Below are positions 36,856 to 63,326 of a stretch of DNA of 63,326 bases, one piece after another. The stretch's first letter is position 1. Each line of letters starts with the position of its first letter. A program made the translations under genes and the position numbers. The notes under the pieces are model-generated. The model saw only the letters and a program-made list of their open reading frames with translations, made no database searches and had not been told where the DNA came from. This stretch comes from Candidatus Woesearchaeota archaeon (GTDB taxonomy: Archaea > Nanobdellota > Nanobdellia > Woesearchaeales > CAIVOO01), in assembly GCA_038890975.1 (NCBI GenBank), contig JAWAEZ010000001.1, forward strand, positions 1,819-65,144, in the 5' to 3' direction.

Positions 36856-36877
36856 TCTTCTTAGAGGTGAGATAAAT

Positions 36878-37530: not shown

Positions 37531-37642
37531 AGCGGGGAGGGGGACTCGAACCCCCGAATAATCGCTGTCCGCTTTTCATCAACATTGTATGTTTCAACAC
37601 AGCGTCTGCAGGCGATCGCCTTAGCCGCTTGGCTACCCCCGC
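37531..37642 (-). tRNA. tRNA-Cys(GCA) with a 39-nt intron at 37/38
   Basis: Reverse complement reads GCGGGGG-TA-GCCA-AGCGGCTA-AGGC-G-ATCGC-CTGCAG[39 nt]A-GCGAT-TATTC-GGGGG-TTCGAGT-CCCCC-TCCCCGC-T. Intron 37567-37605. G37 fits tRNA-Cys. TATA-like ttttataaag lies ~25-34 nt upstream. Confidence 0.8.
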
Positions 37643-48500: not shown

Positions 48501-50670
48501 TTGTATTTACGCAAATTTTTTCCCCTTCAATTTCCGGGATAGGAACTAAATCTTGTCTTGAAAGGTCCTCATTTAAAACACCACCACCATAAACATCTCC
48601 TGGTTGGCAGTTTTCATTTACAAGTGAAGAGAATTTCTCTTCTCCGATACCTTGTAAAGATTTTATCCCTCCTTCGGTAACTAAAACTGCACTTAATAAA
48701 CAACCAACACCTTGATATCCATTTTGTTTATAATCACTAAAAGATTTTATTCCTTTACAAATATTGTTTTTAGATTCGTCATCTTTAAAACTTTTAAAAT
48801 ATTTCTGTCCTTCTTTTATGTACATAGAAGAAGTCCCCCCACCATCAATTTTAATTGCGTAGTTACAGTAATTTTTTAATTGGTCCGCTAAATTTCTCAA
48901 AGTTATATCATTTAGATAAACAAATAACCCTATTGTTCCATCTTTTCCGATACATATACCATTTTTTTCTTTTCCTTTAGGGTGTTTTTTTTCATAGGCA
49001 TATTCTGGATCTTTATCATTAAAAGAAGAAACTTTACCTTCATCAACCAAAAGCACCCCTTGTAATGCGTATTTAATATTTGTTTTAGAAGGAAATAATC
49101 TATTAAATTGTTGTAAAGACACAATACCAAATTCGTCATTATTCGTTATATAAAAAACATGACGTGTTTCACAAAAATCTAAATTTTCATAAGGAAAATG
49201 TTGTTTTCCTTCTTCAATGTATAAACAAGTGGAGCCTACACTTTTAGTAGAACTGCCCCTTACTAAATTAGTATAGCCAAAAAAACCCCCATTCGTTGCC
49301 GCCGCTATTTTTAGACCCTTATTATTGGCGCTGTCAACAATTGTTTTAAGTGTAGCGAGATCCTGCCCAGTAATTTCCGTAGCACTACGTATTTTCAAAT
49401 ATTTTGGGGAAGATACCCATATCATCTTTAAATCGGAAGTTCCAGAATTTTGATTGCAATCCCCTTCTAATATTTTTCCTGTTGCTGCTTCCACGGGGCA
49501 TATTTTAAGTTTCCCATTTTCTGCTGCTTCCACAAGAACAAAAATGTTTTTGTTAGGGTAACCTCTTAACTCGTGTGACGAAGCAGTTCCCACAACAATT
49601 TGTTCCGTGTTCTCATCTATTTTGTTTCTTATATAGCAATGTTGATGGCCGGAGAATATTGCTATTATATCGTTATTCTCTTTAGCAATTGTTTGAAGAT
49701 TATTATTATACACATCATCCCTGCAGCTGGGGGAAGTTTTAATTGCTGGGAGATGAGTTATTATTATTGTGGGTTTATTCTTATTTTTTTCCAAATCTTT
49801 TTTAAGCCACTGGACATTTGCGTACTGGTTCTTATAATCAAGGAAAACAAAGTGGTAACCTTTGTAATCAAAAGAGTAAGAGTGAGCCCATTCGCCTTCT
49901 ATTGCTATGTTTTGTGGTTTTTTATCTGCCCAAAATTTATTGTAAGAACTTATCGTTTCTTGCTTATCATATTCGTGGTTTCCTGTTGTAGGGAATATTG
50001 GATAATTTTTTAGTTCTTTATACTCGGCAAAATTAAATTGCGTATTTGGCAAACAACAAGAAAAATCGCCTGCGTGCAATATTATTTCTGGGTCTAGTTT
50101 TTTAATTGTGTTGGATAAATCGCTACTGCTTATTCCCTTACTTGTGTGAGTATCGCTTATTACTACGAATCTGAATGCTTCTGCGTTGCTAGAAAGAATT
50201 ATTGAACAGAATGTTATAGTAAAAATCATAACTCCTACTTTTTTAAGATGTTTTCTTCTCAATAGAAAAATAATAAAAAAAATGAATATCACCAACAAAA
50301 ATGAAAAAATTATTATTTTCAAAATGATGTTTTCTTTTTTTACTTTTGTTTCTTCGCCTGATAAGTAAAATTCTTCCGCAAAAGAATTTGCCTCTTCTTC
50401 ACTATACCCCGCTTTTAAATATTTTTCTTTTATTTCTTCTTTTGTCAAATAGTTACATTTTCCTTTACAACATACCTCATTAACAAAGTCGCTGGTATTT
50501 TTTATTATTATTCCTATGCATTTTTGGTAATCTCCGCAAACTGCGATTCCTCCTGCCTCTGAACATGTTACTCCGTAGGCGTTTATTTCCTGCTGCGCAG
50601 AAATAGTTCTATTTATTAAGATAACAATTGCCAAAAATAATAATGTTTTAACAAAATCTTTGCGTTTCAT
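45574..50670 (-). CDS. 1698-aa secreted/membrane multidomain protein: Cys-rich N-terminus, 2 TM helices, metallophosphoesterase, NAGPA-like domain 1, M15/VanY-like peptidase, NAGPA-like domain 2, Fn3-like modules
   Basis: Signal MKRKDFVKTLLFLAIVILINRTISA. Metallophosphoesterase motifs VISDTH, HAGDF, GNHEYD, ITHLP, SGHQHC (nt ~49516-50175). NGGFF...IDGGGTSSMY (~48676-49428) and NAAFF...LDLDGGGSTQMY (~47131-47868). SPFRS...HYNGYAMDI...EGWHFEY (~48085-48468). C-terminal PPPPVED...LSWDKS...VGYKIY. SD AAGGTGA and an ATGA overlap with the SLT gene. Confidence 0.8.
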   Translation of the reverse strand: MKRKDFVKTLLFLAIVILINRTISAQQEINAYGVTCSEAGGIAVCGDYQKCIGIIIKNTSDFVNEVCCKGKCNYLTKEEIKEKYLKAGYSEEEANSFAEEFYLSGEETKVKKENIILKIIIFSFLLVIFIFFIIFLLRRKHLKKVGVMIFTITFCSIILSSNAEAFRFVVISDTHTSKGISSSDLSNTIKKLDPEIILHAGDFSCCLPNTQFNFAEYKELKNYPIFPTTGNHEYDKQETISSYNKFWADKKPQNIAIEGEWAHSYSFDYKGYHFVFLDYKNQYANVQWLKKDLEKNKNKPTIIITHLPAIKTSPSCRDDVYNNNLQTIAKENNDIIAIFSGHQHCYIRNKIDENTEQIVVGTASSHELRGYPNKNIFVLVEAAENGKLKICPVEAATGKILEGDCNQNSGTSDLKMIWVSSPKYLKIRSATEITGQDLATLKTIVDSANNKGLKIAAATNGGFFGYTNLVRGSSTKSVGSTCLYIEEGKQHFPYENLDFCETRHVFYITNNDEFGIVSLQQFNRLFPSKTNIKYALQGVLLVDEGKVSSFNDKDPEYAYEKKHPKGKEKNGICIGKDGTIGLFVYLNDITLRNLADQLKNYCNYAIKIDGGGTSSMYIKEGQKYFKSFKDDESKNNICKGIKSFSDYKQNGYQGVGCLLSAVLVTEGGIKSLQGIGEEKFSSLVNENCQPGDVYGGGVLNEDLSRQDLVPIPEIEGEKICVNTNVCFSEPGDCCVLKEGAVRQIYPLYTLFKQRGCKLKIVSPFRSLKIYKEKWDASEKNPQTNCPPRDDAGKIMKEGYTEENFKHCPHYNGYAMDIWVECDPNDPSREHISYEEKIKIACQAGWVNYHHEGWHFEYGSNYWKRAKSKDKNLCQWPLQDSVLERERSGEGATTLYKTHNAITLDNDQQIILDPTNYIKEDYKKTEIKKIPKDAISLTTKQTNFGLMNIIEIDVNYFDVRTMSAKTIMDRTRKKCNNDCRLSISDIKWNQLNVVAAVNAAFFERGNQVKDTDEHPNYNEYEGMVSNYELYGRPQGIYIEDGKIISPFYYTKKKGYFVVQNGQPKILEVPNVEEAKKVLLRENSDIQYAVNGILKAGEDSGSRLTGVCITKENKLKLITTESGGNIQVFLDYLRDNENCQDALDLDGGGSTQMYYNYEGQNKVLKSSVDRKVANFIVVIPKAFAYGSPELCPPISVQNSPEEEILYGAYNVFPSFSVEVDKDFSEYRLLEDYSREYFEQCRNEKNILECFSEKSRSNEDFSFYFKKQGQTTNDNGWYTYCERKEEAFINDFVERYEDCRDSQTDSCYCEIPEIRNIPNLKIVVTEITPKDFLLVAPNIPYSLELYSGVFNTIFPKEIRTNGMIFNNYLEEKNYILRYYKEKKLSFEKDKANLPKCDISQNNIIKICAVSKKNKVFGINQMDGKLEETPLVYRFALETKDLPPPPVEDVKAEDLKRRKQLLLLSWDKSVAGDVVGYKIYESQRAFNNLDLEKAKSSPDINLVKNIDVGSAISVYKFVGVRCNLQNNVCDYVLAVKYSKDGDQSLMEIKQDQLIYEEETGKFYYVLSVEDDISYYYGVTAIDRKDQESTSFLKTPLGTSVNDIPPGLVSVTKQSLNEKSVKIKWDVPSFYIDGTQVEEKIKDKMSFEIYQKCPNSDMNVFSMSGKEIIQAPDCETKIIAKIGNIPSKEESIDEPIFKALGII

Positions 50671-51860
50671 CCGTCACCTTGGCTTGTTATTTGCAGTTGT
50701 TCAAATTTATGTTTCAACGCCATAACTCTTTCAACATATCTCTCTGTTTCAGCGGGGATTTGTTGTAATGTTCCTTCTGCCGCAATTATATCTTCCCATT
50801 GAACCTCTTCAGGATTTTTAGAAATTTTTTCTGCCACTTTTTTGATTTTTGTTTTGTTTAATCCTCCGTTATAGGTTGCAAGAGCGAATCTTATATTATC
50901 TTTATATCCACCATAAACTTTATAAGCAAGATATTTCAGGTATTTAACTGCGGCTTTTATACTTTCTTCGGGGTCTGTTCTATAATCGTAATCTTCGCAA
51001 GGTTTTTTTCCTCCACCGCCCTTGCTACAAAGACCGTAACTTGCCGCTGTTCCAGGCATAAATTGTGTTAAACCAACAGCACCTACATAACTTCTTGCAT
51101 TAGGATTCCCCCCTGACTCTTGCATTATTAAAGCAACAATAAGCGATTCTGTAATGCCTGGAATCTCAGATGCTCCACCCTCTTCTTCTATTGCTTTTCT
51201 TATGAATTCTCCATATTTTAGGTATATCTGCTTTAGTTTTTCTTCTTCGCTACCTCTTATTTTAATATCTTGAGCGGTATTATAAGTTGTGTAACTAACC
51301 CCTGGCGTTATTACTCCTTTCTTTATTTCTAAACTTAGGGGAAGTTTTGCGTCGCCTGTTACTAATGTCTTTGGAGAAGAAGAATCACCGATGTTTACTA
51401 CGCTTATTTCATAATTTTTGTCCGTAGGTATCATAAGAGAAGGGGATAAACGAAAATATTCGTCTAATAAATTATTTAAGCTTTCGCCATATGCATTTTG
51501 AAGATTTTTATTTTTAGTATTATCCGCGTCTGGGATGCATTTGTCGTTGTCTAACTCCCAAACCGCAAAACCTGCATATCTTTGGCAATCCTCTGGCTTC
51601 TCTGGAAAACCTCCCATTCTGGCTGTTCTTAGAAATGCTTCTTGGGCTGCGAGTTTGGCTGATGTGTCGACATAAAATAGTGTTTCTTCTGCATCTTGGT
51701 ATGAAGAAAATAAAAGTACGGCCTTTAAACCTATGTTCCCTGCGAATTGTTTTTGCTCTCTTATTATGTAAAAAAGCATCGTGACCTGTGCTATTATCAG
51801 TCCTGTTACTACTATTATTATGAAAAATTTCGCTTTTTTATTTTTTATTATTTTTTTCAT
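50667..51860 (-). CDS. membrane-anchored lytic transglycosylase (SLT / GH23 domain)
   Basis: N-terminus KNKKAKFFIIIVVTGLIIAQV. SLT motifs LIVALIMQESGGNPNARSYVGAVGLTQFMPGTA...YNGG (nt ~50856-51233; putative catalytic Glu codon 51117-51119). Confidence 0.8.
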   Translation of the reverse strand: MKKIIKNKKAKFFIIIVVTGLIIAQVTMLFYIIREQKQFAGNIGLKAVLLFSSYQDAEETLFYVDTSAKLAAQEAFLRTARMGGFPEKPEDCQRYAGFAVWELDNDKCIPDADNTKNKNLQNAYGESLNNLLDEYFRLSPSLMIPTDKNYEISVVNIGDSSSPKTLVTGDAKLPLSLEIKKGVITPGVSYTTYNTAQDIKIRGSEEEKLKQIYLKYGEFIRKAIEEEGGASEIPGITESLIVALIMQESGGNPNARSYVGAVGLTQFMPGTAASYGLCSKGGGGKKPCEDYDYRTDPEESIKAAVKYLKYLAYKVYGGYKDNIRFALATYNGGLNKTKIKKVAEKISKNPEEVQWEDIIAAEGTLQQIPAETERYVERVMALKHKFEQLQITSQGDG

Positions 51861-52351
51861 TGTTTATCAAACGCATAAGAGGAGGCGGTTATTACCTTAC
51901 GCCTTGGTGTAGGAAATCTAATTTCAGTAACTTTTATATGAGATGACAAAGAATCGCAATTATTCGTTAATGGGGATATTACAATTATTTCGTTTTTTTC
52001 TTCAAAATTAAAGGATATGCAAGATATTGATGAGTATATTTTATTTTTTTCTAAAGTTTCAATTATTTTGTCTTTTACTTCTTTGTTTCTTTTTAAATCG
52101 TAATCAATAAGGTAATCTGCTATTGTTTTTTGTTCGTCTACTGGTGTTTTTAAAATATTGAGCAGTTCCATTGTTTTTTCTTCTTTTAACAATTCATAAT
52201 ACATCGCGTAGTCAATCCTTGTAGAAACAGTTAATGCGATGTAAATTACTAAGAAGACCAAAAAATAAGCTATCACCGCCCACACATCTATTATTAACGA
52301 TGTCGCTATTCCTTTTTTATTTTTGATTATTTTATTTTTCACTAGTTTCAT
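51857..52351 (-). CDS. pilin-like protein (class III signal peptide-like N-terminus), 164 aa
   Basis: MKLVKNKIIKNKKG/IATSLIIDVWAVIAYFLVFLVIYIAL. ATGA overlaps on both sides. Confidence 0.6.
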   Translation of the reverse strand: MKLVKNKIIKNKKGIATSLIIDVWAVIAYFLVFLVIYIALTVSTRIDYAMYYELLKEEKTMELLNILKTPVDEQKTIADYLIDYDLKRNKEVKDKIIETLEKNKIYSSISCISFNFEEKNEIIVISPLTNNCDSLSSHIKVTEIRFPTPRRKVITASSYAFDKQ

Positions 52352-52896
52352 GTTTTAGGCACCAAAACAACGAAATTTATAAAAGCGGGGTACATTTCTC
52401 CGTTATCTAAAACAATAACATATCTTCTAGTTTCTATTTTTTCCACTTTTCCTATTCCTACAAAAAAAACATTTGATAGAGGAAGCCAATTAAAATACTT
52501 TTCTCTGTTGTAAAATAACTCAATTTTTTTAACTTCTTCTTTTCCTTCTTCTTTTTTGACATTGTAGGTTAGCGTGATGTTTGCAGCTATCATATTATTA
52601 ATTTCGCCGAAAAACATTGCTTTTTCTAGAGTCGTTTCTGATAGTTTATTTATATCAACTACTCCATAAATAGTCCTTCCCGTGCTTGGGTCGGTATAAG
52701 GCAATGCGTTTGGGTTGTAGAGCATGTATCTCACGAAAATTTCTGCTTCTTGTTTTGTTGTATCTAGCGTTTGCGAATCGTAATAGCGCGCTAAAAAGTA
52801 AATAAAAAAAAGCATTAATAATACAAAAAGTATTCTCGCAGACCAATAAACAGCGTCGTAAGCGTTTATTCCCCTTTTTGATTTTGCAATTTTCAT
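52348..52896 (-). CDS. pilin-like protein, 182 aa
   Basis: MKIAKSKRG/INAYDAVYWSARILFVLLMLFFIYFL. Confidence 0.6.
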   Translation of the reverse strand: MKIAKSKRGINAYDAVYWSARILFVLLMLFFIYFLARYYDSQTLDTTKQEAEIFVRYMLYNPNALPYTDPSTGRTIYGVVDINKLSETTLEKAMFFGEINNMIAANITLTYNVKKEEGKEEVKKIELFYNREKYFNWLPLSNVFFVGIGKVEKIETRRYVIVLDNGEMYPAFINFVVLVPKT

Positions 52897-52912
52897 ATTT
52901 TCATTTTAAAAA

Positions 52913-53839
52913 TTATTTACCAAAATATTCATTTATCGCCCCGCCTATTTCATTAATTATTGTGCCTCTGTTAAGAGATCCTATTTCTATTCTTAATATT
53001 GTAGTTGGTTGCGAATCAAAATCGCCTATATTAATTGTAGCTACCAAATTTTGTTTGTATATCCGATTTTTTATAATGCATGCCAATCTTCTTGATTTTC
53101 TTTCGCTGTTGATGTAAATTTTTGCTGAAGAATCCTCTATATAATCTACTCCTCTAATTTCAATGAATAGTGCTGTTTTTTTATTTTGAAATTCTTGTTC
53201 AAATTTTTCTTTGTCTGTATAGTATCGTGCTTCTAAACCGGGCTGTAAAGAAGGTATGAGGGATTGTTGAATCAATTTATTAATTTCTTCTTTATTTTTT
53301 TTATCAAAAAATTGTAAACCCTGTCCTGTGCTGTCGTAAATAAAAATTAACTTTTCGTCTTTTGAAACATCAATTTTTTCGCAGTTCATAGATTCTAAAG
53401 TTAAATCGTTATTGTTTATGAAAAAATCTGGTGGTGTCTTTTTAAAAGAAAGAACTGTCCTGTTTTGGTCTTCTAGCGGATAAATTTTCTCTTTTGGTAT
53501 GATAAAATTCAAAGCTAAGTCCTTTGGAAAAAAATAATAAGTGTTTGAATCTTTTGTAACATCTTCGTCAATAGAATAAACATTTATCCTATTATTTAAA
53601 AACCCGTACACGAATCCTCTCAAATCTGCATAACTTAAAAAAACAGCGCCAGGAGATGCTTCTATTGCCTCCATAGTGAGTGCTAAATCTCTTGCTGTTT
53701 TTTCTTTTAATAATCTTGTTCCTGTTCCTACTGAAACAGCATAAGAAATGGCTGCTGTTGTTACCATAATCGCTAGAAAAATCTCAATAATTATTTTATA
53801 AAGCTCTTTCATACCTCTTTTTTGCTTAAAAATAAGCAT
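52913..53839 (-). CDS. pilin-like N-terminus plus a C-terminal amidase_3-like domain whose zinc ligands appear substituted
   Basis: KQKRG/MKELYKIIIEIFLAIMVTTAA. C-terminal half has LIFIYDSTGQG (compare iDpGHGG), ALFIEIRGV (compare SiHaNa), TILRIEIGSLN (compare vLvElGFlsN) and IGGAINEYF. Confidence 0.55.
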   Translation of the reverse strand: MLIFKQKRGMKELYKIIIEIFLAIMVTTAAISYAVSVGTGTRLLKEKTARDLALTMEAIEASPGAVFLSYADLRGFVYGFLNNRINVYSIDEDVTKDSNTYYFFPKDLALNFIIPKEKIYPLEDQNRTVLSFKKTPPDFFINNNDLTLESMNCEKIDVSKDEKLIFIYDSTGQGLQFFDKKNKEEINKLIQQSLIPSLQPGLEARYYTDKEKFEQEFQNKKTALFIEIRGVDYIEDSSAKIYINSERKSRRLACIIKNRIYKQNLVATINIGDFDSQPTTILRIEIGSLNRGTIINEIGGAINEYFGK

Positions 53840-53874
53840 ATCAATTTAAATTAAAAATATCTTCTTTTAAAAAT

Positions 53875-54735
53875 TTATTGTTTTACGACGCATTTAACTA
53901 TTTCTCCTTCTTTTGATAATGTGCATGCTCCTTTGCAAACTTTATCACAAATATCTAATGGAACTTTGGAACAATCAATATTTTGGCTGCAAGGGATACA
54001 TCTTCCTATATCTTGTTCTTCTTCCCAATAGCAGGTTATGCCTTCTTTATCGAAACCGCAAGGGTCTCCTAAACATTGTCTTTTGTGTAATTCATAATTT
54101 TCTTCATTTTTGTCAATACTAAAACTAAATTCTGGCTGACCAAAAGTTGTTGATTCAGAAAGAGTTAAAGAATACTGTTCGCATTTAAAAGTTGAGAAAC
54201 AATTTTTGCATTTACCTGTATAAATTATACATTTGTAATTCGTACAAAGATTTAGGTCTTCAATTCCTTCACAAGATATACCCTGTTCTGATTTGATTAT
54301 TTCTTTGTTAATTTCAAAATTGATGTACTGTACTCCGGCATATGAGTAGTGAAAGTGCATAGGGGGAGTTTCTTTTTTGAAACAATCGATATTATAAATT
54401 TTTAAACCGCAACCTTTTTTAACGCCACTCATAGAAATGTCGTCTTCTTTACAAAGGCATATACAATCTTTGGAACAATAGTTATCTTCTGAGTTAGTTG
54501 TTATTTTAAAATCTTCACCTATTTGAATGGGTACAGTAAATTTTCCTTCATTAACATTTTTGAATAAGTAAACAATTCTTTCGTAACTTTGCTCTGTTAC
54601 ATAATCCGGCCTCTTGATTAAAAGATTATAAGCTTTTGTAATAAGTGGAAGAATGACAAAAGTTATAACGATAAACGCTATAACAACGCCCATTAGTGTT
54701 GTTATAGCGATTTCTATAGATTTCTTGTTAATCAT
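53875..54735 (-). CDS. pilin-like N-terminus plus a large Cys-rich ectodomain (22 Cys by my count)
   Basis: MINKKS/IEIAITTLMGVVIAFIVITFVIL. The internal ATG at 54735 is preferred because the track start at 54771 overlaps the upstream gene. Confidence 0.6.
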   Translation of the reverse strand: MINKKSIEIAITTLMGVVIAFIVITFVILPLITKAYNLLIKRPDYVTEQSYERIVYLFKNVNEGKFTVPIQIGEDFKITTNSEDNYCSKDCICLCKEDDISMSGVKKGCGLKIYNIDCFKKETPPMHFHYSYAGVQYINFEINKEIIKSEQGISCEGIEDLNLCTNYKCIIYTGKCKNCFSTFKCEQYSLTLSESTTFGQPEFSFSIDKNEENYELHKRQCLGDPCGFDKEGITCYWEEEQDIGRCIPCSQNIDCSKVPLDICDKVCKGACTLSKEGEIVKCVVKQ

Positions 54736-54736
54736 T

Positions 54737-55003
54737 TTATGTTTCTGAAACACAACAAACCTTACCTTCACCGCAATCGAATCTCCCTATATTAACTGTT
54801 CCGGGAGGACAAACTTTACCTTCTAAACACTGACCATTCCTTGCAGAACAACTTATTATTCCTTCCGCTGCTTTTGAAGATTTTTTTGTTTCACTATAAA
54901 ATATGTACGCCAATATTGCTAATACAATAACTGCTAAAACGAAACCTACAACAACCCAATTAACTTCTGCCTTCCTTGATTTTGTGTTATTTTTCACTTT
55001 CAT
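54737..55003 (-). CDS. mini-pilin paralog 5 (88 aa), six-Cys head
   Basis: MKVKNNTKSRKA/EVNWVVVGFVLAVIVLAILAYIF...CSARNGQCLEGKVCPPGTVNIGRFDCGEGKVCC. Internal ATG at 55003 preferred over the track start at 55090. Confidence 0.65.
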   Translation of the reverse strand: MKVKNNTKSRKAEVNWVVVGFVLAVIVLAILAYIFYSETKKSSKAAEGIISCSARNGQCLEGKVCPPGTVNIGRFDCGEGKVCCVSET

Positions 55004-55289
55004 ATTTAATACAACACGCCTGAAGTTTTTCGCCGCTATCGCCAATACTTTCACAACCTTTTGTGTATATGATATATTCACTCCCCTCACACTTCTGTCC
55101 TGGGGGCGTGATGCATCTTCCTCCTTGGGCTTTGCATGGTTGCGAAGTTGACTTAGTAAAAATTTGTGATTTAGAAGAAAAAATGAATATCAAAACAGCC
55201 AAAACAACAAGAGAGATAACAGCGATTATTATAATATTTATGCTTAGTTCTGCTGCTATTTTTTTAATTTTTTTATTATGTTTGTTCAT
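54987..55289 (-). CDS. mini-pilin paralog 4 (100 aa), six-Cys head
   Basis: KKIKKIA/AELSINIIIIAVISLVVLAVLIFIFSSKSQIF...CKAQGGRCITPPGQKCEG...GCES...ACC. Confidence 0.65.
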   Translation of the reverse strand: MNKHNKKIKKIAAELSINIIIIAVISLVVLAVLIFIFSSKSQIFTKSTSQPCKAQGGRCITPPGQKCEGSEYIIYTKGCESIGDSGEKLQACCIKYESEK

Positions 55290-55524
55290 TTTTTTCTATA
55301 GGCATACAACATTTTCCGCTGTCACATTTCCCCCCTAATAAAGGTGCGTGGGTTGAAGGGCATCTTTCTAAACAGACCCCTCCTTGGGCTTCGCAACTTG
55401 CTGTTGTTCTTGAAAATACCCCAAACTTTCCACTAAATATTATTATTGAAACAACAAGAGCTATTAGGAGAATAATCACCACAACTATCATAGTTAAAGT
55501 TAGTTCGGCACCTTTTTTATTCAT
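55276..55524 (-). CDS. mini-pilin paralog 3 (82 aa), six-Cys head
   Basis: MNKKG/AELTLTMIVVVIILLIALVVSIIIFSGKFGVF...CEAQGGVCLERCPSTHAPLLGGKCDSGKCC. Confidence 0.7.
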   Translation of the reverse strand: MNKKGAELTLTMIVVVIILLIALVVSIIIFSGKFGVFSRTTASCEAQGGVCLERCPSTHAPLLGGKCDSGKCCMPIEKNEQT

Positions 55525-55526
55525 TT

Positions 55527-55823
55527 TTATGTAAATTTACAACAACAACATTTACCAATCCCTCTTGTCTGCGTATCTCTGCAAGTGAAACCTTCCGGAA
55601 AATTTACTTCTTCGTCTCCTTCTAAACATATATCCGAACAATAACGGCCCGTCCCAGGTATGTCACAAACTTTGGGGTTATAAACTTTTGATGTTTCTTC
55701 TGAAGTTTTCTGAAAAAAACCCATCTTCCCAGAGAATATTATAACCACTACAACAAGAGCAACTATTAAAATTACTGCTACAATTATCAGATTCATGGAC
55801 AATTCTGCGGCTTTCTTTCCCAT
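55527..55823 (-). CDS. mini-pilin paralog 2 (98 aa), eight Cys ending in CCCC
   Basis: MGKKA/AELSMNLIIVAVILIVALVVVVIIFSGKMGFF...CDIPGTGRYCSDICLEG...FTCRDTQTRGIGKCCCC. Confidence 0.7.
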   Translation of the reverse strand: MGKKAAELSMNLIIVAVILIVALVVVVIIFSGKMGFFQKTSEETSKVYNPKVCDIPGTGRYCSDICLEGDEEVNFPEGFTCRDTQTRGIGKCCCCKFT

Positions 55824-55835
55824 TTTATTCTACTA

Positions 55836-56144
55836 CTATTCTACCCCTCCTGCCCCTACAGTCACACAACAAAAACCGTCTGAATCTTTGTTGTTGAAAT
55901 TAAACTTTCCGTCCCCGTTTAAATCGCACGCCCCCCAAGAAATTTTGTCGTAAGCGCCGTTACAATCAGTTTCTACCGCAACGCATCTTCCTGCATTGCC
56001 GTACTTAGTTGTACATTTGTCAGATTCCCTTACAAATATTCCTGTTCTCCCAGTAAAAATTATAGACAATACTACGAGAACAAGCAGTCCGAGTGCTGCT
56101 ATTATCACAACATTTAAAGACATTCCTTGCGCTTTTTTTACCAT
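55836..56144 (-). CDS. mini-pilin paralog 1 (102 aa), six-Cys head; candidate major subunit
   Basis: MVKKAQG/MSLNVVIIAALGLLVLVVLSIIFTGRTGIF...C..C..C..C..CC. It is the only gene in the operon preceded by a ~100-nt gap and by a strong SD (GAGGTGATtagATG). Confidence 0.7.
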   Translation of the reverse strand: MVKKAQGMSLNVVIIAALGLLVLVVLSIIFTGRTGIFVRESDKCTTKYGNAGRCVAVETDCNGAYDKISWGACDLNGDGKFNFNNKDSDGFCCVTVGAGGVE

Positions 56145-56246: not shown

Positions 56247-57230
56247 TTAACATACCTTACCTTTGTAGCAGCAGCTTGTGTACTGGGGCTTATCGTTAAT
56301 AGGTGTTTGGATAATGAGTGATTCGCATTCTAATAATTTTCCTTTATCATCTTTTATTTTACAGAGATTGGAATTACAAGAATCTACAAGCGGGTAATCG
56401 TAGTTTTCTATATGGATTATGTTATATTTTTCACAATCATTCTTGCTATTCTCAATAATGCTTTTACAACTATAGCAAGATGTTGTTTTTGTTGTTGTTG
56501 TTTTAAACTCGTACGCGCATCTAGGAACTTCTTCTTTATTGATTATATCCTTTACAATAGCGAGAGATACACAATAAGATGGATTTTTATTGTTTGCTTT
56601 TTCACAATTTGCAAAACCGCATTTAAGTTTTCCTTCATCAGACCAGCTTACACAAAATTTATGACTTTTTTCCGGGTTACAATAACTATTTATATCTTCT
56701 TCACTCATTTTTTCGCAATCAACAATTTTTTTAATTAAGTTTATGTTTCCAGTAGCCACTTCTGCCCCCTTCGTGTTCGGATATTTTTCTGTTAGCTTCT
56801 GAAATTTTTCAAGAAATTTTCTTAGTTCGTCTTGAAAATCTTGAATATTGGTTGTTCCTTCATATTGGAGTTTAGAGAATTCTTCGCTTATTTTATAAGC
56901 TTCACAGTTTGCTTCTGCTTCTCTTTTTATTTTTGTGTATTTGTTTATTAAGAGTGAATTCTCTTCTTTAAGATTTCTTATTTCTTGTTCTATGCTCAAT
57001 TTGGCTTGGCAAGAAGTGGGCAGATTGACTGATTTTTCTAAAAGCTCAGCAAACCTTTCTTCTGCTTCTTCACTTGTTCCTACACTTTTTGCTATGTCTG
57101 AAAAAAAATTTTTTGCAGGCGCATCTTCTTTTAAAAAAAAATTAAATATTATGACTGCAACAACAACGATAACTATTACTATTAAAGCTGCATTTTTTAT
57201 TTCGTTTGAAACTGCTTTTTTGTTTTTCAT
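56247..57230 (-). CDS. pilin-like N-terminus, helical middle, Cys-rich C-terminal domain (18 Cys by my count)
   Basis: MKNKKA/VSNEIKNAALIVIVIVVVAVIIFNF. C-terminus ...TTTTKTTSCYSCKS...SCCYKGKVC. SD GGAGGG lies inside the upstream micro-ORF (TAAATG junction). Confidence 0.6.
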   Translation of the reverse strand: MKNKKAVSNEIKNAALIVIVIVVVAVIIFNFFLKEDAPAKNFFSDIAKSVGTSEEAEERFAELLEKSVNLPTSCQAKLSIEQEIRNLKEENSLLINKYTKIKREAEANCEAYKISEEFSKLQYEGTTNIQDFQDELRKFLEKFQKLTEKYPNTKGAEVATGNINLIKKIVDCEKMSEEDINSYCNPEKSHKFCVSWSDEGKLKCGFANCEKANNKNPSYCVSLAIVKDIINKEEVPRCAYEFKTTTTKTTSCYSCKSIIENSKNDCEKYNIIHIENYDYPLVDSCNSNLCKIKDDKGKLLECESLIIQTPINDKPQYTSCCYKGKVC

Positions 57231-57383
57231 TTACCCTCCTATTTGTAGTATTGAAGCTAATTTATTCCAAAGGTCTGAAGCATTCCCCGATAAAATTGTG
57301 ATAATAACAATAAGAGCAATTATTAAAAGGAGAATTATAACCCACTTAGCAATCTCGTCCCAAGTTATTGAAGCTTTCCCCAT
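57231..57383 (-). CDS. unlisted 50-aa micro-ORF, Flp-like minimal pilin or single-TM peptide
   Basis: Own translation: MGKA/SITWDEIAKWVIILLLIIALIVIITILSGNASDLWNKLASILQIGG*. It falls below the track's length cut-off. Its stop TAA abuts the next ATG, and its last codons supply that gene's SD. Confidence 0.5.
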   Translation of the reverse strand: MGKASITWDEIAKWVIILLLIIALIVIITILSGNASDLWNKLASILQIGG

Positions 57384-57425: not shown

Positions 57426-58310
57426 TTATCTTGTTCTGAGGGATATGGGTAAATATTGGCACCCTAACTCTTTAAGTGTTTCTTCATTTTCGTAAGGTAA
57501 GAAGGATATCATCGCTATACTATCCGAGTTCCCCCCACTAAATATAGATGTTAATAATTCTAAACCTCCAACCACAACCGCCCCTCCTGTTGCCAACATA
57601 AACGAACCTCCAGCCAGAATCACTGCTATGCCTGTCCCTGCAGCAGAAATAACCCCCATAGATATAGCCCCAACCAGTTTATTTTTCTCAGCGCCAAGAG
57701 TAACTAACTTACTAAAAAAAATTTTTACTTCGTCAATAGTGCTCAATTTTTTTTGATAAATGAACACGACCGCATATTTTTTAGATGTGTCTATAACCCC
57801 CTCACCTACTTCTCCACTAATTTGTTTGGCTATTCCGTTGGTAAAATAAGTTACATAATCAACATTTTCAAAAGGAACATTATTCTCTAACAAATATCTA
57901 TTAAAATCTTTTATTTCCTTATTTTTTTCTTTAAAATCTATTAATGCGTAAACTGCGCAATAAGTTCCTGACTCTTGAAAAAGATCAATATTCCCTCTCC
58001 CAAAAACATCCCACGCTTCTGCCATCGTAATGGCTATCTCCTTTTTCATTTTCTCTGCTTGTTTTGGTATCTCTGGATTACCAGTTAGTGTTAATTCTAG
58101 AAGTGGGCATTCTATCGTGTAAGGTCTTAGTTCATAACCTTTAATGGTTGTTAGGGAATATAAAAGAACGGAGTTTTTGCATTGCCTCTTGTGTATCTCC
58201 CTCTCGTTTGCTTCTTTAACTTTTGAAATAAAAGTTAAATAAAATATCGCTGCAACTATTACAATTAAAAACCCTGCTATTATCTTCGTGCTAAGCGCTT
58301 TTTTGTTCAT
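57426..58310 (-). CDS. pilin-like N-terminus plus a C-terminal Gly/Ala-rich hydrophobic segment
   Basis: MNKKA/LSTKIIAGFLIVIVAAIFYL. C-terminus GAISMGVISAAGTGIAVILAGGSFMLATGGAVVVGGLELL. ATG at 58310 preferred over the track start at 58331. Confidence 0.6.
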   Translation of the reverse strand: MNKKALSTKIIAGFLIVIVAAIFYLTFISKVKEANEREIHKRQCKNSVLLYSLTTIKGYELRPYTIECPLLELTLTGNPEIPKQAEKMKKEIAITMAEAWDVFGRGNIDLFQESGTYCAVYALIDFKEKNKEIKDFNRYLLENNVPFENVDYVTYFTNGIAKQISGEVGEGVIDTSKKYAVVFIYQKKLSTIDEVKIFFSKLVTLGAEKNKLVGAISMGVISAAGTGIAVILAGGSFMLATGGAVVVGGLELLTSIFSGGNSDSIAMISFLPYENEETLKELGCQYLPISLRTR

Positions 58311-58311
58311 A

Positions 58312-59028
58312 TTAGTTAAGCAGCATTTCACATCCTAATTTTTCAATTTCTTTATCTTTTACCAATACTACTGCTGAAAAAGGTGTGCCTCCTATACTCA
58401 TTGAAGGAATATTAAAATATTTCTTCATTTCATCAGGAAACTTTAAATTAGGAGAATCTACAATCGCTACGAAAACAACATAATAATTTGAGGATGTGGA
58501 TATTGGCTCTTCAAAATAATATCTTTTCTCTTCATTAAAAGATAAAAAATCTGAATAAGAGAATTGAGCTCCTGTTGGAATATTCTTATCAAGCCAATCT
58601 TTCATATTTTCTATTGTGAGACCTTTTTTCTCAAAATAAATAATTGAACATAACAAACATGCTTGGTCGTCGGCGCCAATAAATTTATTCGTAAAATCAT
58701 AATATTTTCCTTTTCCCATTTTGTACCAACAATCATACATAGCATCTGCTATTTTTCTAGAAATATAATTTTTAATTTTATCATCTTCTTTCGGCAGTTC
58801 TGAATTTTTTATGTATATGTATTGCATTGGGCAATCTAAATTAAATATGGTCTCTTTACCTCCTATTTTCGCGGCTTGCTCCGCTTCAACACTTAACCTA
58901 CAATACTCTCTTATATTTGTTTTTTTTAAATAAAAATTTATTTTGTTAGTAAGAACTAAAATTATTATAAATACTACTATTAGGATTATTAATGTCAGTA
59001 GGCTTACCTGCACTGCTTTTTTTCTCAT
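58312..59028 (-). CDS. pilin-like protein, 238 aa
   Basis: MRKKA/VQVSLLTLIILIVVFIIILVL. Confidence 0.6.
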   Translation of the reverse strand: MRKKAVQVSLLTLIILIVVFIIILVLTNKINFYLKKTNIREYCRLSVEAEQAAKIGGKETIFNLDCPMQYIYIKNSELPKEDDKIKNYISRKIADAMYDCWYKMGKGKYYDFTNKFIGADDQACLLCSIIYFEKKGLTIENMKDWLDKNIPTGAQFSYSDFLSFNEEKRYYFEEPISTSSNYYVVFVAIVDSPNLKFPDEMKKYFNIPSMSIGGTPFSAVVLVKDKEIEKLGCEMLLN

Positions 59029-59165
59029 CTAAGCACCTTCAAAACATAATTCCTAAATATTATCATTAGTATGATAAAAATAACTATTGCTATTGTTATC
59101 CACATCAAGGTTGTCATAAGCCCTGTTTCTTGTTCAATTTCTTGTGCCTTTTTATTTAACTGCAT
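59025..59165 (-). CDS. 46-aa single-TM micro-protein (short version of the 74-aa track ORF)
   Basis: MQLNKKAQEIEQETGLMTTLMWITIAIVIFIILMIIFRNYVLKVLR. The longer track ORF would overlap the upstream gene by 94 nt. Confidence 0.45.
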   Translation of the reverse strand: MQLNKKAQEIEQETGLMTTLMWITIAIVIFIILMIIFRNYVLKVLR

Positions 59166-59713
59166 AAGGATAATTCCACCGTCAGTGTTTGGGGGTATAA
59201 CGGAAGATAATAAAAATCCTTTTGGATGTACTGGCTCTCCTCTATACATTTTTCAATACCATAAGATATGTGTATTTGGGGATTTTCTTTGCTTATATAC
59301 GCCATAAACTCATATTTTTTATTCCAAACTTTTAATGTGTTGTTGAGCAAATTTTCTATTATTGTTGACAAATAACTACAGACATAACTTTCTTCTATAT
59401 AAATATCCCCTTCAACACCTCCTCCGCAGATTCTGCAACTAGTAGTTTCTTGCCCTGCGGGAGCGCACCTACCGCAATCTATCAGCAAAGTGCTAATTCT
59501 ATCGTTATTACAATTCGTAGAGGTTGAAAGTAACGCGCCTAAGATATTAGTTGCCATTTGTTTTTCTGAAAACTCTCTTTTTTGTTCTGTAACCCTTGTA
59601 CGTTTCATAGTATTGCTAACTAAAATTAGTATTCCTATTGATAATATTATAACTACTATTGCTATTCCCAACATCTCCGTCTGAGATTTTTTTTTATTCC
59701 TAAATTTTATCAT
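59156..59713 (-). CDS. pilin-like protein, 185 aa, with a 4-Cys cluster
   Basis: RNKKKS/QTEMLGIAIVVIILSIGILILV. Cys cluster CNNDRISTLLIDCGRCAPAGQETTSCRICGGG. Confidence 0.65.
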   Translation of the reverse strand: MIKFRNKKKSQTEMLGIAIVVIILSIGILILVSNTMKRTRVTEQKREFSEKQMATNILGALLSTSTNCNNDRISTLLIDCGRCAPAGQETTSCRICGGGVEGDIYIEESYVCSYLSTIIENLLNNTLKVWNKKYEFMAYISKENPQIHISYGIEKCIEESQYIQKDFYYLPLYPQTLTVELSLCS

Positions 59714-59715
59714 TT

Positions 59716-60237
59716 TTATCTTTGTTTGACATAAACAGCTACATTAGCGTAACCGAATGAAAAACGCATTTCTATAGGATTATAAATAGCAATTGGTATT
59801 TGCGTTGTTATATAACCTGAAATGTTCCCGCCAGTAAAATCGTAAATATTCCATTCCTTTTTTACAGGATACATCGAATAAATTGTTATATTTGCAAAAC
59901 CAAAAGAATTAAAATAGTGTTGAATAGCTCCTTGGTCTTTTTCTTCCATTATAATTTTTTGCATTGCTTCTATTTTATAAACATCAAAACAGCTAAATTT
60001 TATAACTTCTAATATAGAGCATTGAAGTTCTGGAAGAAAAGAAACCGTCTGGGCCACTCTTATTGCTCTTGAAATTATATCAACTTCTTGTTGCTCTTTT
60101 ATAGATGTCTGGCTGTACCTTGACCAAAAAATCATACCCATTATTACTAAAACAAAAAATATCAAAAGCACTGCTACACTCTCGCCTATTTTTATTTGCG
60201 ACTTCTTCTTTGCTTTCTTTATTTTTATAAACCTCAT
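59716..60237 (-). CDS. pilin-like protein, 173 aa
   Basis: KKAKKKS/QIKIGESVAVLLIFFVLVIMGMIF (Q at +1 and E at +6). Confidence 0.65.
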   Translation of the reverse strand: MRFIKIKKAKKKSQIKIGESVAVLLIFFVLVIMGMIFWSRYSQTSIKEQQEVDIISRAIRVAQTVSFLPELQCSILEVIKFSCFDVYKIEAMQKIIMEEKDQGAIQHYFNSFGFANITIYSMYPVKKEWNIYDFTGGNISGYITTQIPIAIYNPIEMRFSFGYANVAVYVKQR

Positions 60238-60259
60238 TTTTTATATAGCTTATATTTTT

Positions 60260-61300
60260 TTAATAAACTGCTGCACATGATTTTTCAAGCACTTGGCGGT
60301 TAATGTTGTTTATTATTGTCATTTTGTTTGTTATCTTTTCTATATCCGGCGGTGTTGAATTTGCTGCTTCTACAATTTCTAAAATGTCGCTGTACGCTCT
60401 TGATACCGACTTACAATCAGGATTATCTTTGTAGTCCATTTCTAAATTTTTTTCTCGCTCAGCGTATATCTGGCTAACATAGAGCAATCTCTTAAAAGCT
60501 TTATAATATGAACAATTAAATAATTCTCTATTTTCGGAAAATACTGCTCCATACTTAAGAGGATCCCCTACTATTGTTATAGGAAGATAGCCAAACTCTT
60601 GTAATTTATTTCCTTTCTTAACAAAAAATCTAACAGCATCATTAGGGTAATTTATTAGCTGGACTGCACTAACGCTGTCATCGCCCATATTCTTAATAAA
60701 ATTTGGGAGAAAATCATTATTCGTTATTGTTGATACGGGTGTATCTTCAAAAAATATTAGTTTTATTTTATAATTATTTTTGTCTCCTAAGTTTTTAAAA
60801 TCTCTATAGTTTATAACTTCCTTGGTAATGTTATCTGGGAGGGCTAAAAAAAGTTCTTCAGCAGACCTCTTTGCGGTATTATAGTAAATAACGTATCTTA
60901 CATTCTCAGTTGTCATATAAAGAAAATTAGCTGTTTTATAGGGGACATTCCAATCTTGGCTCCACACAATCATCTGCCTGCCTTTTAATAAATCCGGTCC
61001 GAAAACAATTCTGTCCTGAAACTGCTTATCAATTCCTAATGCTGTTATCCTATCACACCCGAGATTGAAATCTATTTTAGGCATGTCAAAAATTTGACCT
61101 GTTTTGGGTATTGTAAGAGCTCCGCTTATTATTAGGTCTATTTTTCCTAGGATGTCAAATGCTAGTTTTTTATCTGCTGCTTTTTTTTGAGCATCAACTA
61201 CTGCTATGAAAAACAGTAGTATAATTGCCCCTACTATGAGTATAAAAACCCAGTTAAACTGGACTTCTATCTGAGATTTTTTTTGTTTTCCGTAGAACAT
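60260..61300 (-). CDS. pilin-like protein, ~346 aa
   Basis: MFYGKQKKS/QIEVQFNWVFILIVGAIILLFFIAV. ATG at 61300 preferred over the track start at 61342. Confidence 0.65.
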   Translation of the reverse strand: MFYGKQKKSQIEVQFNWVFILIVGAIILLFFIAVVDAQKKAADKKLAFDILGKIDLIISGALTIPKTGQIFDMPKIDFNLGCDRITALGIDKQFQDRIVFGPDLLKGRQMIVWSQDWNVPYKTANFLYMTTENVRYVIYYNTAKRSAEELFLALPDNITKEVINYRDFKNLGDKNNYKIKLIFFEDTPVSTITNNDFLPNFIKNMGDDSVSAVQLINYPNDAVRFFVKKGNKLQEFGYLPITIVGDPLKYGAVFSENRELFNCSYYKAFKRLLYVSQIYAEREKNLEMDYKDNPDCKSVSRAYSDILEIVEAANSTPPDIEKITNKMTIINNINRQVLEKSCAAVY

Positions 61301-61301
61301 A

Positions 61302-61790
61302 TTAAGGCAGGGATATTTTTGCTTTATCACCGAACCCCTCAATTCTCACAGCAATCGTGCCTTGTTTAACAGGAAAACAGAGGAAACCTCCATTGTCACT
61401 GACCCATAATTTATCAATATAAAAAGGAACCCCATCTGGAAGAGGGAACACATTATTGTTTACTTTATCAGCAACGCTGTTTGCTATAATTGGGTACTTT
61501 AAGCTGTCTATGGGGCTTGCGTCGCCTCTTGCTATTAGAGAGGGATCAACAAAACATACCTCTGTAAATTTAACAGGCACAGAAAATGACTCTACTCTAA
61601 CAGTGCCGTAGTCAGAGCTTGTATAAACTATTGTATCTCCAATATTTCTTTGAAATTTGACTAATGCGAGTTGCTCCTGTTTTTTTCCTATATTTTTAAC
61701 TGCTGCGTAACCATAATAAAGAATAAGTACAACTATTATCGTTGAGATTATATAAATAAAAATCTGACCTATTTGTGATTTCTTCTTCAT
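61302..61790 (-). CDS. pilin-like protein, 162 aa
   Basis: MKKKS/QIGQIFIYIISTIIVVLILYYGY. Confidence 0.65.
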   Translation of the reverse strand: MKKKSQIGQIFIYIISTIIVVLILYYGYAAVKNIGKKQEQLALVKFQRNIGDTIVYTSSDYGTVRVESFSVPVKFTEVCFVDPSLIARGDASPIDSLKYPIIANSVADKVNNNVFPLPDGVPFYIDKLWVSDNGGFLCFPVKQGTIAVRIEGFGDKAKISLP

Positions 61791-61801
61791 TTTTAATCGG
61801 C

Positions 61802-63326
61802 TTATCTATTTTTATTATTCTTTTTCTGTAATTTTTCAAGTTTTTCAGGGGATTTCCCTTTTCCTATTTTTTCAAGTTTTTCGAATGCTTCTTCTTCCTT
61901 AATTTTTTCTAATTTTTCAAAAACTTCCTCTCTCTTTTTTTCTAATTCTTCAAGGCGCTTAAATTCGTCTTTTTGTATTGTTAGTGGTTGTTTTGGAATT
62001 ACCCTCTTAGGCATTGGCTTTAATTTTTGAATGATTCTCGGCAGTATTACCTTCTGCGCAGGTTGTTGCATTTTCTTAGAGTTCTCTTCTCTTAACTCTC
62101 TTGGTTTTCCAAAAATTCCAAAAATTTTTTCTCTTTCAATTTCTTTTTGCGCTCTTTCCTTTTCTTTTCTCGCTTCTAATTTAATCTTTTCTACAATAGA
62201 AAGCGGTTTTGTTTTCTGCCCTTCCTTAACGGCTGGTGTTCGTAGTTGTTGTGGTGCCGGCTTAGGTTCCTCTTTTTTAGTCGCTTTTTTAACATAATAT
62301 TTCTTATAAAATAAATAACCAGAACCTCCTGATGTGGATAATAAACCAACAATTAATATTAGTATTTTTATTATTTTCAATAAGGTTAGGCCCCTTATTT
62401 CTGCCTCGCTTATTATCGAAACATTACCCTCTATTGGTGGCTGTACGCATTCTTTCGCGAAACATTTGCCTGATAAACAATCAGAATCTACTAAACAGTA
62501 TTTTCCTACACTACATTTTGGACAATCAACGCCGCCACAATCAACATCAGTTTCGTAACCATTTTTCAAAGAATCGTTACACAAATGAATTGCGCATATT
62601 TTATTCACACTACAATAATTTGTTATGCAATCGTTATCTGAGCCGCATCTTTGGTTAATTTCGCATTTTGCACAATCAATGCCGCCACAATCAACATCAG
62701 TTTCGTAACCATTTTTTATCCCATCATCACAAGAAGGCTGTTTGCATATTCCGTTAGCACAAAATAAAGATAGACAATCTGAATCTATACCGCAGGTTTT
62801 TTCAATATCACATCTTCGGCAGGTACCTCTTCCGCCACAATCAACATCAGTTTCTTCGTAATCTTTTATATTATTCGAACAGTGGTCAGCGGCTATAATT
62901 TCTATCTTTTCGTTTCCTCTTGCTTTGTTACCTGCAATGTCTTGTGCTTCGTAACAAAAATAAGATGTTGAAGAAACACTAACAAGATATGCTTCTCTTT
63001 GGGTATCATATTCCAAAGGCGACATTGTACCGATACAACTAGGACTGTTAGATATTAAATATCGATAGGATGAATTATCACATCTTGTTTCTGCGTCTAT
63101 ACAAACAAAAGAAACTTCCACGCCGGAGGGGGTTAAGTTTCTCTTTAGAAATATTGATGGTGGTTTATTATCGCAAAGTACGCCTGATTCGTCATAAATT
63201 ATTATATTGCCCGATCCTACATCTCCTTCAATCCCAACATTGTTTACGGCTCTTGCTGAAAAACCGTAACTAGCCGCGTTTGTAAGATTTAGTTTATTGC
63301 CTTTTTCATCCCTATCCACGGACAGT
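61802..63326 (-). CDS. large surface protein, partial (N-terminus off the right edge): Ig/Fn3-like segment, three Cys-rich 50-aa repeats, one TM helix, K/E-rich cytoplasmic tail
   Basis: The frame is open through 63326; the track start at 63319 is a GTG. ...EAQDIAGNKA..., then 3x (NGYETDVDCGG..C..C....C..D.DC.S..C....C), TM LLKIIKILILIVGLLSTSGGSGYLFY, and a tail with an EKLEK periodicity. Confidence 0.7.
   Translation of the reverse strand, partial: LSVDRDEKGNKLNLTNAASYGFSARAVNNVGIEGDVGSGNIIIYDESGVLCDNKPPSIFLKRNLTPSGVEVSFVCIDAETRCDNSSYRYLISNSPSCIGTMSPLEYDTQREAYLVSVSSTSYFCYEAQDIAGNKARGNEKIEIIAADHCSNNIKDYEETDVDCGGRGTCRRCDIEKTCGIDSDCLSLFCANGICKQPSCDDGIKNGYETDVDCGGIDCAKCEINQRCGSDNDCITNYCSVNKICAIHLCNDSLKNGYETDVDCGGVDCPKCSVGKYCLVDSDCLSGKCFAKECVQPPIEGNVSIISEAEIRGLTLLKIIKILILIVGLLSTSGGSGYLFYKKYYVKKATKKEEPKPAPQQLRTPAVKEGQKTKPLSIVEKIKLEARKEKERAQKEIEREKIFGIFGKPRELREENSKKMQQPAQKVILPRIIQKLKPMPKRVIPKQPLTIQKDEFKRLEELEKKREEVFEKLEKIKEEEAFEKLEKIGKGKSPEKLEKLQKKNNKNR
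62435..62884. repeat. three in-frame 150-bp tandem repeats (coding, Cys-rich module)
   Basis: ccgccacaatcaacatcagtttc recurs at 62532, 62682 and 62832, an exact 150-nt period. Confidence 0.85.

Follow-up and report, generated by a model that had tools for sequence, protein, structure and literature searches.

Tandem mini-proteins with pilin-like N-termini and beta-defensin-like six-cysteine heads in an operon of Woesearchaeota

Characterised archaeal pilins carry an immunoglobulin-like beta-sandwich head. Type IV filament systems of the Epd-like kind are reported from DPANN archaea, and their major pilin is very small and headless (10.64898/2026.04.22.720090). How these archaea attach to their partners is largely obscure, and the question of bacterial hosts has been argued mainly from stray lytic transglycosylase genes. 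Here we describe an array of five tandem genes (P1 to P5) in a 63,326-nucleotide stretch of DNA from a Candidatus Woesearchaeota archaeon (assembly GCA_038890975.1, contig JAWAEZ010000001.1; hereafter ‘the window’, meaning the whole stretch), whose small products join a pilin-like N-terminus to a six-cysteine head. On sequence comparison and structure prediction, we put the chances at about even that these proteins, as pilin-like subunits with class III signals, belong to a surface apparatus contacting or attacking bacteria.

For the heads, the closest described counterparts are the beta-defensins, which have the cysteine framework C-x4-8-C-x3-5-C-x9-13-C-x4-7-CC; crotamine also has the beta-defensin fold. 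The bacterial defensins reported so far are cis-defensins, trans-defensins having been described only in animals (PMC11561630), and laterosporulin is a bacterial peptide reported to show a human beta-defensin-like disulfide pattern (PMC5396196). A search of the searchable literature on defensins with archaea or DPANN returned nothing relevant.

The array occupies positions 54737-56144 of the window and consists of five co-directional minus-strand open reading frames (ORFs) of 82 to 102 amino acids (aa), spaced from +12 nt to small overlaps (Table 1). The proteins share a basic leader (MxKK[G/A]), a polar motif (AQGMSLN or AAELSMN), a ∼23-residue uncharged hydrophobic run, and a head whose six cysteines end in a terminal CC, extended to CCCC in P2. 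Cysteine spacings are 9-6-11-18-CC in P1, 8-3-14-10-CCCC in P2, 6-3-11-4-CC in P3, 6-7-11-12-CC in P4 and 6-5-11-5-CC in P5. A first-pass annotation, made from the sequence alone, had recognised the five tandem paralogs, their common plan and the six-cysteine heads ending in CC or CCCC, all of which the ORFs bear out; its details need some correction. The size range that it gave (88-102 aa) holds for all but P3 (82 aa), its spacing pattern for all but the last loop of P3 (4 residues, outside the 5-18 proposed), and the post-helix motif that it assigned to all five genes, of the type IIF(S/T)G(K/R)xGxF, is found in P1 (IIFTGRTGIF), P2 (IIFSGKMGFF), P3 (IIFSGKFGVF) and P4 (IFIFSSKSQIF) and is missing from P5. 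The N-terminus of P5 resembles the headless 50-aa proteins of the same operon, described below, and its orthologs carry KKADVNWVVV N-termini; as ortholog starts correspond to this KKADVNW-type N-terminus, a GTG-extended P5 of 117 aa was rejected as unlikely.

The loop between the fourth and fifth cysteines of P1-type proteins (P1 residues 74-90, DLNGDGKFNFNNKDSDG) resembles an EF-hand/dockerin-like calcium-binding motif (DxNxDG), and similar DxNGDGK loops occur in family members P0064, P0074 and P0094; Pfam gave no support for this likeness.

The array belongs to an extensive family. Searching with a profile built from the five brought up 126 relatives, 78-121 aa long; in 111 of the 120 listed, the head has 6 or 8 cysteines and closes with CC. 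An exhaustive HMMER search of 1.84 billion cluster representatives matched 5,283 clusters (counted at 50% identity) with a cutoff of E≤1e-3, and 2,633 with one of E≤1e-10; the six-cysteine module recurs in 139 of 144 further representatives taken from the new top matches, and its six cysteines are invariant in an 80-sequence alignment. On these counts the pattern is not due to chance, and homologues elsewhere keep the cysteines. A CCCC subfamily, with the motifs CD(V/I)PGTGRYC and GKCCCCKF, is found across many metagenomes. The 22 loci confirmed among GTDB species genomes all come from metagenome-assembled genomes of Woesearchaeota or Nanoarchaeota; three of the 22 carry the label Methanosarcinales, which is taken as a mislabel. 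No covering family was found on searching the five proteins and 81 members against Pfam, or the five against NCBIfam, which gave no match for the tested neighbours either, and members are mostly called ‘hypothetical’ where the source gives a name. As far as these searches reach, the family is large, unannotated and specific to DPANN archaea (Woesearchaeota/Nanoarchaeota).

Several comparisons place the head close to the beta-defensins. P3 and P5 fit the beta-defensin framework, the loops of P1, P2 and P4 being longer, and the modal spacings across the family are 6, then 3 or 6, then 11. Residues 41-73 of P3 align with positions 2-35/36 of the Pfam Defensin_beta profile (E=7.2e-4), although this best score, 20.0 bits, lies below the gathering threshold of 21; P5 matches the same profile at E=0.07. 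When 34 isolated heads were compared with Pfam, Defensin_beta was matched by 6 (E<0.1) and Crotamine once, as was each of two unrelated families. A head-only profile, run against 177,635 distinct PDB sequences, gave 18 matches at E≤10, all to proteins of the beta-defensin fold, including tick carboxypeptidase inhibitor (the best, E=0.002), gallinacin-11, penguin defensin, Defensin-BvL, human beta-defensin 1 (hBD1), crotamine and platypus DLP-1.

Structure prediction points in the same direction. An AlphaFold2 model of the P3 head, computed from 34 archaeal sequences without templates, has three strands at a predicted local distance difference test score (pLDDT) of 81.3, and of its 38 Foldseek matches in the PDB ∼32 belong to the beta-, big or alpha-defensins or to the defensin-like peptides, at template modelling (TM) scores of 0.42-0.63. 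The best beta- and big-defensin matches reach TM 0.5-0.63, and root-mean-square deviations for matches of these two kinds are 1.3-2.9 Å; the E-values are ∼1, as expected for a domain of ∼35 residues. Aligned by hhalign with ten beta-defensins, all six cysteines fall into register over 34 columns (P=5e-4, probability 31%). Alpha-defensins (3 columns, P=0.28) and cis-defensins of the cysteine-stabilised alpha-beta type (8 columns, P=0.06) were rejected as models for the head; since these controls align over so few columns, the beta-defensin match is specific, the beta-, alpha- and cis-defensin alignments used here having been compiled by hand. The tiny three-disulfide head had been likened beforehand to knottins or defensins: the second comparison is upheld by the Pfam, PDB, Foldseek and hhalign results, and the first was rejected, no knottin appearing among the Pfam, PDB-sequence or Foldseek matches. 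Taken together, these results support a beta-defensin-like fold and framework for the head, a likeness in which homology and convergence are indistinguishable.

Conservation within the family is highest at the N-terminus, a pattern that would be expected of pilins rather than of disposable Sec signals. Mean top-residue frequency is 0.62 over the N-terminal 43 columns vs. 0.30 over the non-cysteine head columns, and entropy is 1.53 vs. 3.02 bits. The boundary motif, KK[A/G]QG[MIL]S[LM]N or KKGAELSLN, hardly varies; the residue after KK[G/A] is A or Q both in P1-P3 and family-wide, with KKIAAE in P4 and RKAE in P5. The giant proteins of these operons have leaders of Sec type, unlike the uncharged hydrophobic run of the array proteins. 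In an AlphaFold2 model of full-length P1 (pLDDT 81.6), a helix spanning residues 10-41 is followed by a short helix (44-51) and three strands, and residues 11-30 are predicted at pLDDT ∼92; a short helix precedes the sheet in hBD1 and hBD2 as well. The prepilin-like N-terminus noticed at the outset thereby finds support in the KK[G/A] boundary of P1-P3 and in the predicted helix, and the conserved hydrophobic N-terminal helix characteristic of type IV pilin-like proteins is found here both by prediction and by column conservation.

Beyond the array, all genes from 45574 to the window end lie on the minus strand, and an N-terminus of the form [KR][GAS] plus hydrophobic run occurs in 14 of 19 proteins of this operon vs. 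1 of 49 elsewhere in the window. Several of these N-termini read KKSQI, which we take to resemble class III signals with Q at +1. In distant relatives (loci numbered L001-L007) homologous genes keep the same order: giant adhesin-like proteins (Big_13, TSP3_bac, CarboxypepD_reg), ∼8 unknown helix-leader proteins, a ∼50-aa headless helix protein, 2-5 tandem mini-proteins, 4-5 unknowns, a bacterial cell-wall hydrolase, and then the housekeeping gene RPA. The genes upstream of the headless protein in the window have no Pfam or NCBIfam match, and the cysteine-rich giant protein among them is cut by the window end. The headless protein itself (KKA-T/S-x-x-W-D/E-E-I/V-AKW...) is conserved, its copy in L005 (KKADVNWEIVG) having a P5-type N-terminus, and is a candidate Flp/Epd-like headless (major) pilin.

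The hydrolase is a constant member of the operon. Its N-terminal module of ∼190 aa is conserved, and its catalytic domain depends on the lineage: SLT for the window, L001, L007, L009, L010 and L019; Muramidase (PF11860) in L002 and L003, with a giant protein containing Peptidase_M15_4 nearby; VanY/M15 in L004 (a weak Pfam match); Amidase_2 in L005 and L006; and 3D in L012. A peptidoglycan hydrolase, with one of five catalytic domains, is thus in the operon at at least 10 loci and in every lineage examined. The C-terminal part of the 1,698-aa protein encoded by the last operon gene, which might act on wall polymers joined by phosphodiester bonds, is conserved in L001 and L005.

Table 1. Features of the window and of related loci (L numbers); positions without a locus number refer to the window.
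Feature	Position	Strand	Length and remarks
P1	55836-56144	-	102 aa; first and most conserved paralog; N-terminus KKAQG / MSLNVVIIA
P2	55527-55823	-	98 aa; head CDIPGTGRYC...CCCCKFT; eight-cysteine CCCC subtype
P3	55276-55524	-	82 aa; head CEAQGGVCLERCPSTHAPLLGGKCDSGKCC; canonical beta-defensin spacing
P4	54987-55289	-	100 aa; N-terminus KKIAAELSINIIII
P5	54737-55003	-	88 aa from ATG; divergent N-terminus KAEVNWVVVGFVLA
Spacer upstream of P1	56145-56246	-	102 nt
BRE/TATA-like element TTTAAATA	56223-56216	-	putative promoter
Strong Shine-Dalgarno sequence GAGGTGAT	56155-56148	-	before P1
Helix-leader protein	56247-57230	-	18 cysteines; flanks array; no family match; lacks six-cysteine module
Headless helix protein MGKASITWDEIAKW...	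57231-57383	-	50 aa; just upstream of array
Headless helix protein, related loci	L001 8686-8874; L007 8656-8808; L003 8276-8434; L005 9644-9799		∼50 aa
Upstream operon genes	57426-63326	-	seven proteins with KK[A/S](Q)+helix N-termini (e.g. KKSQIEVQF, KKSQIGQIF)
Helix-leader protein	53875-54735	-	286 aa; 22 cysteines; flanks array; no family match; lacks six-cysteine module
Four downstream operon genes	51857-54735	-	KKG, KRG or KKS+helix N-termini
Peptidoglycan lytic transglycosylase (SLT)	50667-51860	-	Pfam SLT 1.3e-24; KKA+helix N-terminus
Protein with Metallophos and NAGPA (phosphodiester glycosidase)	45574-50670	-	1,698 aa; 47 cysteines; Sec-like leader; last operon gene
Larger proteins with tandem six-cysteine modules	L018 10702-12516; L021 10740-12224, 15291-16313; L027 10707-12278; L005 11819-13039
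Same-helix, other-head proteins	L018, L020, L021, L024-L027 (match at ∼10001)
Three tRNA genes	1067-1165; 13470-13557; 37531-37642	+; -; -	88-112 nt; probably intron-containing; two missed by ARAGORN, found by Rfam
Fluoride riboswitch	36797-36866	+	Rfam RF01734, 43.4 bits vs. gathering 34; next plus-strand ORF 37087-37506

To our knowledge, archaea have no peptidoglycan. They also normally lack murein transglycosylases (PMC8204110). On both grounds the wall being cut must be foreign, and a peptidoglycan hydrolase as a constant member of an archaeal operon makes bacterial cells the likely target, in agreement with earlier suggestions based on transglycosylase genes (PMC9723730; PMC8204110; PMC12352652). 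A module common to Woesearchaeota and Pacearchaeota, made up of unknown lineage-specific families plus lytic transglycosylases, has been suggested to act on bacterial walls (PMC8204110; PMC9723730), and the operon probably overlaps this unannotated, Woesearchaeota/Pacearchaeota-specific module of Castelle et al.

The five paralogs appear to be individually maintained. The order P1-P2-P3-P4-P5 is kept in L001, L007, L009, L010 and L011, some paralogs being undetected at some loci; the CCCC subtype is second in the first four of these, and positional orthologs of P4 occur in L001, L007 and L011. More distant clades have 1-5 detected copies, the first being P1-like in most. P1 orthologs are 66-88% identical. 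The greater divergence of heads than of N-termini, already noted before this analysis, holds across the family and fails for P1 and P2, in which head identity between the window and L007, at 78% and 73%, is as high as that of the N-termini; head identities of P3-P5 are 35-54%. Diversifying selection on head versus helix, for which a check had been suggested, finds no backing: the proportion of nonsynonymous differences (pN, 0.18-0.33) is well below that of synonymous ones (pS, 0.7-0.9) in both halves of the proteins, only pN and amino-acid identity being given, and no dN/dS ratio, as dS is saturated even against L007, the closest locus. Antigenic variation was rejected, the five paralog types being stable positional orthologs, and the earlier proposal of antigenic diversification or interchangeable subunits is not supported. 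Stable order and identity, P1 and P2 heads conserved as strongly as their N-termini, and pN below pS rather favour, on comparative grounds, five distinct, maintained roles.

Six genomes keep a BRE/TATA-like element (AAACCTTTAAATACT) and a Shine-Dalgarno sequence (AAAGAGGTG) before P1, the remaining spacer diverging. Because this box and the strong Shine-Dalgarno sequence are conserved together, a strong internal promoter is suggested to drive the array, as for structural subunit genes.

In related Nanoarchaeota loci, 2-4 tandem six-cysteine C...CC modules are found at the C-termini of larger cysteine-rich operon proteins. The KKGAELSLNFIIIAAI helix is also found on proteins of 124-143 aa whose head is of another kind, its 6-8 cysteines not closing with CC. 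Given these tandem copies, and a KKGAELSLN helix joined to unrelated heads, put at 125-143 aa, in other Nanoarchaeota loci, helix and head both behave as mobile modules; such modularity is typical of pilins.

Reading the five proteins as pilin-like subunits is the most economical account, since conservation peaks in the helix, the leader is operon-wide, the heads come as modules and expression appears to be high. A class III (prepilin) signal peptidase would cut the leader at KK[G/A], so that A or Q becomes residue +1. The helices would then pack together inside a surface filament or a short pseudopilus, whose exterior would be formed by acidic, protease-resistant three-disulfide knobs of 30-50 residues. 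This filament may be part of an apparatus encoded by the ∼20-gene operon, comprising pilin-like proteins, the headless candidate and giant adhesin-like proteins, together with helix-anchored enzymes that would degrade peptidoglycan and the bacterial envelope, and with which the archaeon would bind and breach bacterial cell walls. The knobs would serve as a robust outer coat or binding surface, and not as a membrane-permeabilising peptide.

Several observations weigh against this account. The +2 residue (E or G) lies outside what we take to be the FlaFind-type pattern. No curated pilin or class III signal profile in Pfam or NCBIfam is matched at threshold, the only matches of this kind lying below it: Flp1_like in 4 of 81 members (best E=0.0047) and PilX_N in 2 of the 81. 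A full-length profile run against PDB sequences matched generic transmembrane helices and, weakly, defensins, and no archaeal pilin or archaellin helix; a Foldseek search with the full-length P1 model gave five poor matches, hBD1 third, and is uninformative. Within 10 kb of the array on either side, L001-L007 have no called gene for a type IV filament ATPase, a platform protein or a prepilin peptidase, nor was one found among the scanned proteins of the window, which cover part of its 63 kb. As to the head, AlphaFold2 may lean towards a defensin fold from the cysteine pattern alone.

The unmatched pilin profiles and the array neighbourhoods without assembly machinery, along with a single N-terminal hydrophobic helix behind a basic cytoplasmic leader, would also suit an uncleaved type II signal-anchor, in which the helix stays in the archaeal membrane and displays the knob, for example at a host contact zone, and no filament is formed. 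We consider this doubtful: the polar motif before the helix (AQGMSLN/GAELSLN) and positions within the helix are conserved over thousands of clusters, and the leader type is common to ∼15 operon proteins, as in pilin clusters.

It is unlikely that the proteins are secreted or released effectors whose freed head, in the manner of a defensin or bacteriocin, acts on a bacterial partner, for example by binding lipid II or other parts of the envelope, in concert with the hydrolases. Such a role would accord with the beta-defensin-like framework and predicted fold, with the co-operonic bacterial cell-wall hydrolases of all lineages examined, and with the existence of bacterial defensin-like bacteriocins (laterosporulin, PMC5396196; cis-defensins, PMC11561630). 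The heads, however, are acidic or neutral, with a median core charge of -2 and a charge of +2 or more in 1-4% of members, vs. +4 to +11 for hBD1-3; they thus lack the cationic character of mature beta-defensins, and classical cationic antimicrobial peptide action was rejected on this ground. Moreover, the length and conservation of the hydrophobic segment exceed what a disposable Sec signal would show, the listed sequences have no evident signal peptidase I site of small residues behind it, and the module is also tandemly repeated within large structural proteins. That the heads are protease or carboxypeptidase inhibitors of the tick type, protecting the apparatus or blocking host peptidases, is very improbable, in spite of the tick protein heading the PDB matches and of one Pfam Inhibitor_I68 match among 81 members (E=0.002), as it is the common beta-defensin framework (C.KGG.C...CC) that accounts for the match, the tick inhibitor acts through its C-terminal tail while the tails after CC here vary in length and sequence with no conserved tail seen, and no peptidase target is evident.

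The locus gives DPANN biology a concrete, conserved and testable gene set: ∼20 surface proteins with pilin-type leaders, a domain-swapped wall hydrolase and apparently highly expressed mini-subunits. Both the pilin-like architecture and the defensin-like fold of the family appear to be undescribed before, and the combination is one of pilin-like proteins with an unprecedented head and context. If the literature picture holds, the family would be the first archaeal trans-defensin-type fold, and a very large one, which bears on the origin or convergence of the defensin fold. We think it quite unlikely that the heads are true relatives of animal trans-defensins, through a prokaryotic source or ancient inter-domain transfer, and act as filament-mounted envelope binders in an undescribed wall-opening DPANN organelle. 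A compact disulfide scaffold on a putatively self-assembling helix may also be of protein-engineering interest. The window itself is archaeal, with tRNA genes that probably contain introns and ∼31% G+C; its fluoride riboswitch is listed in Table 1.

Compared with archaeal type IV and Epd pilins, bacterial Flp/Tad pilins and the truncated pilins of Geobacter, the array proteins are alike in having a putative basic leader before a conserved hydrophobic helix, in their very small size, in the clustering of genes with the same leader, and in joining a conserved helix to variable heads. They differ in the unmatched curated profiles, the atypical +2 residue, and the absence of adjacent ATPase, platform and peptidase genes; in addition, Epd, Flp and Geobacter pilins are headless, whereas the array proteins carry a three-disulfide, beta-defensin-like knob. 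Modular pilins (e.g. Streptococcus sanguinis PilB) likewise place enzyme- or adhesin-like modules on a pilin-like N-terminus, as the SLT protein of this operon does, and the specialised lytic transglycosylases of bacterial trans-envelope machines are likewise a constant peptidoglycan hydrolase within a gene cluster; in contrast to both, the host here is archaeal and the catalytic domain is swapped between lineages.

With beta- and big defensins (PF00711, PF14862), P3 and P5 share the pattern C-x6-C-x3-5-C-x11-C-x4-5-CC and a GG-x-C before the second cysteine; a three-stranded sheet is predicted in common, with a short preceding helix in P1, and it is hBD2, hBD4 and big defensin that match the head model at TM 0.5-0.63. 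In big defensins, too, a hydrophobic N-terminal part precedes the defensin-like domain, which is C-terminal. Beta- and big defensins are cationic animal proteins with a Sec signal and propeptide, whereas the array heads are acidic, archaeal and borne on a membrane helix or class III-like signal, and the loops of P1, P2 and P4 are much longer. Tick carboxypeptidase inhibitor, which has two beta-defensin-fold domains (1zlh, 2k2z), aligns with the head profile in its six cysteines and in CKGKGGEC/C.xxGGxC; it differs in architecture, organism and genomic context, and in the post-CC tail that the archaeal proteins do not conserve. Laterosporulin-type bacteriocins, which were absent from the sequence and fold matches of the head, are likewise small prokaryotic six-cysteine peptides, but are free, secreted and cationic products of Firmicutes, with neither a helix anchor nor an operon of the kind in which the archaeal array is embedded.

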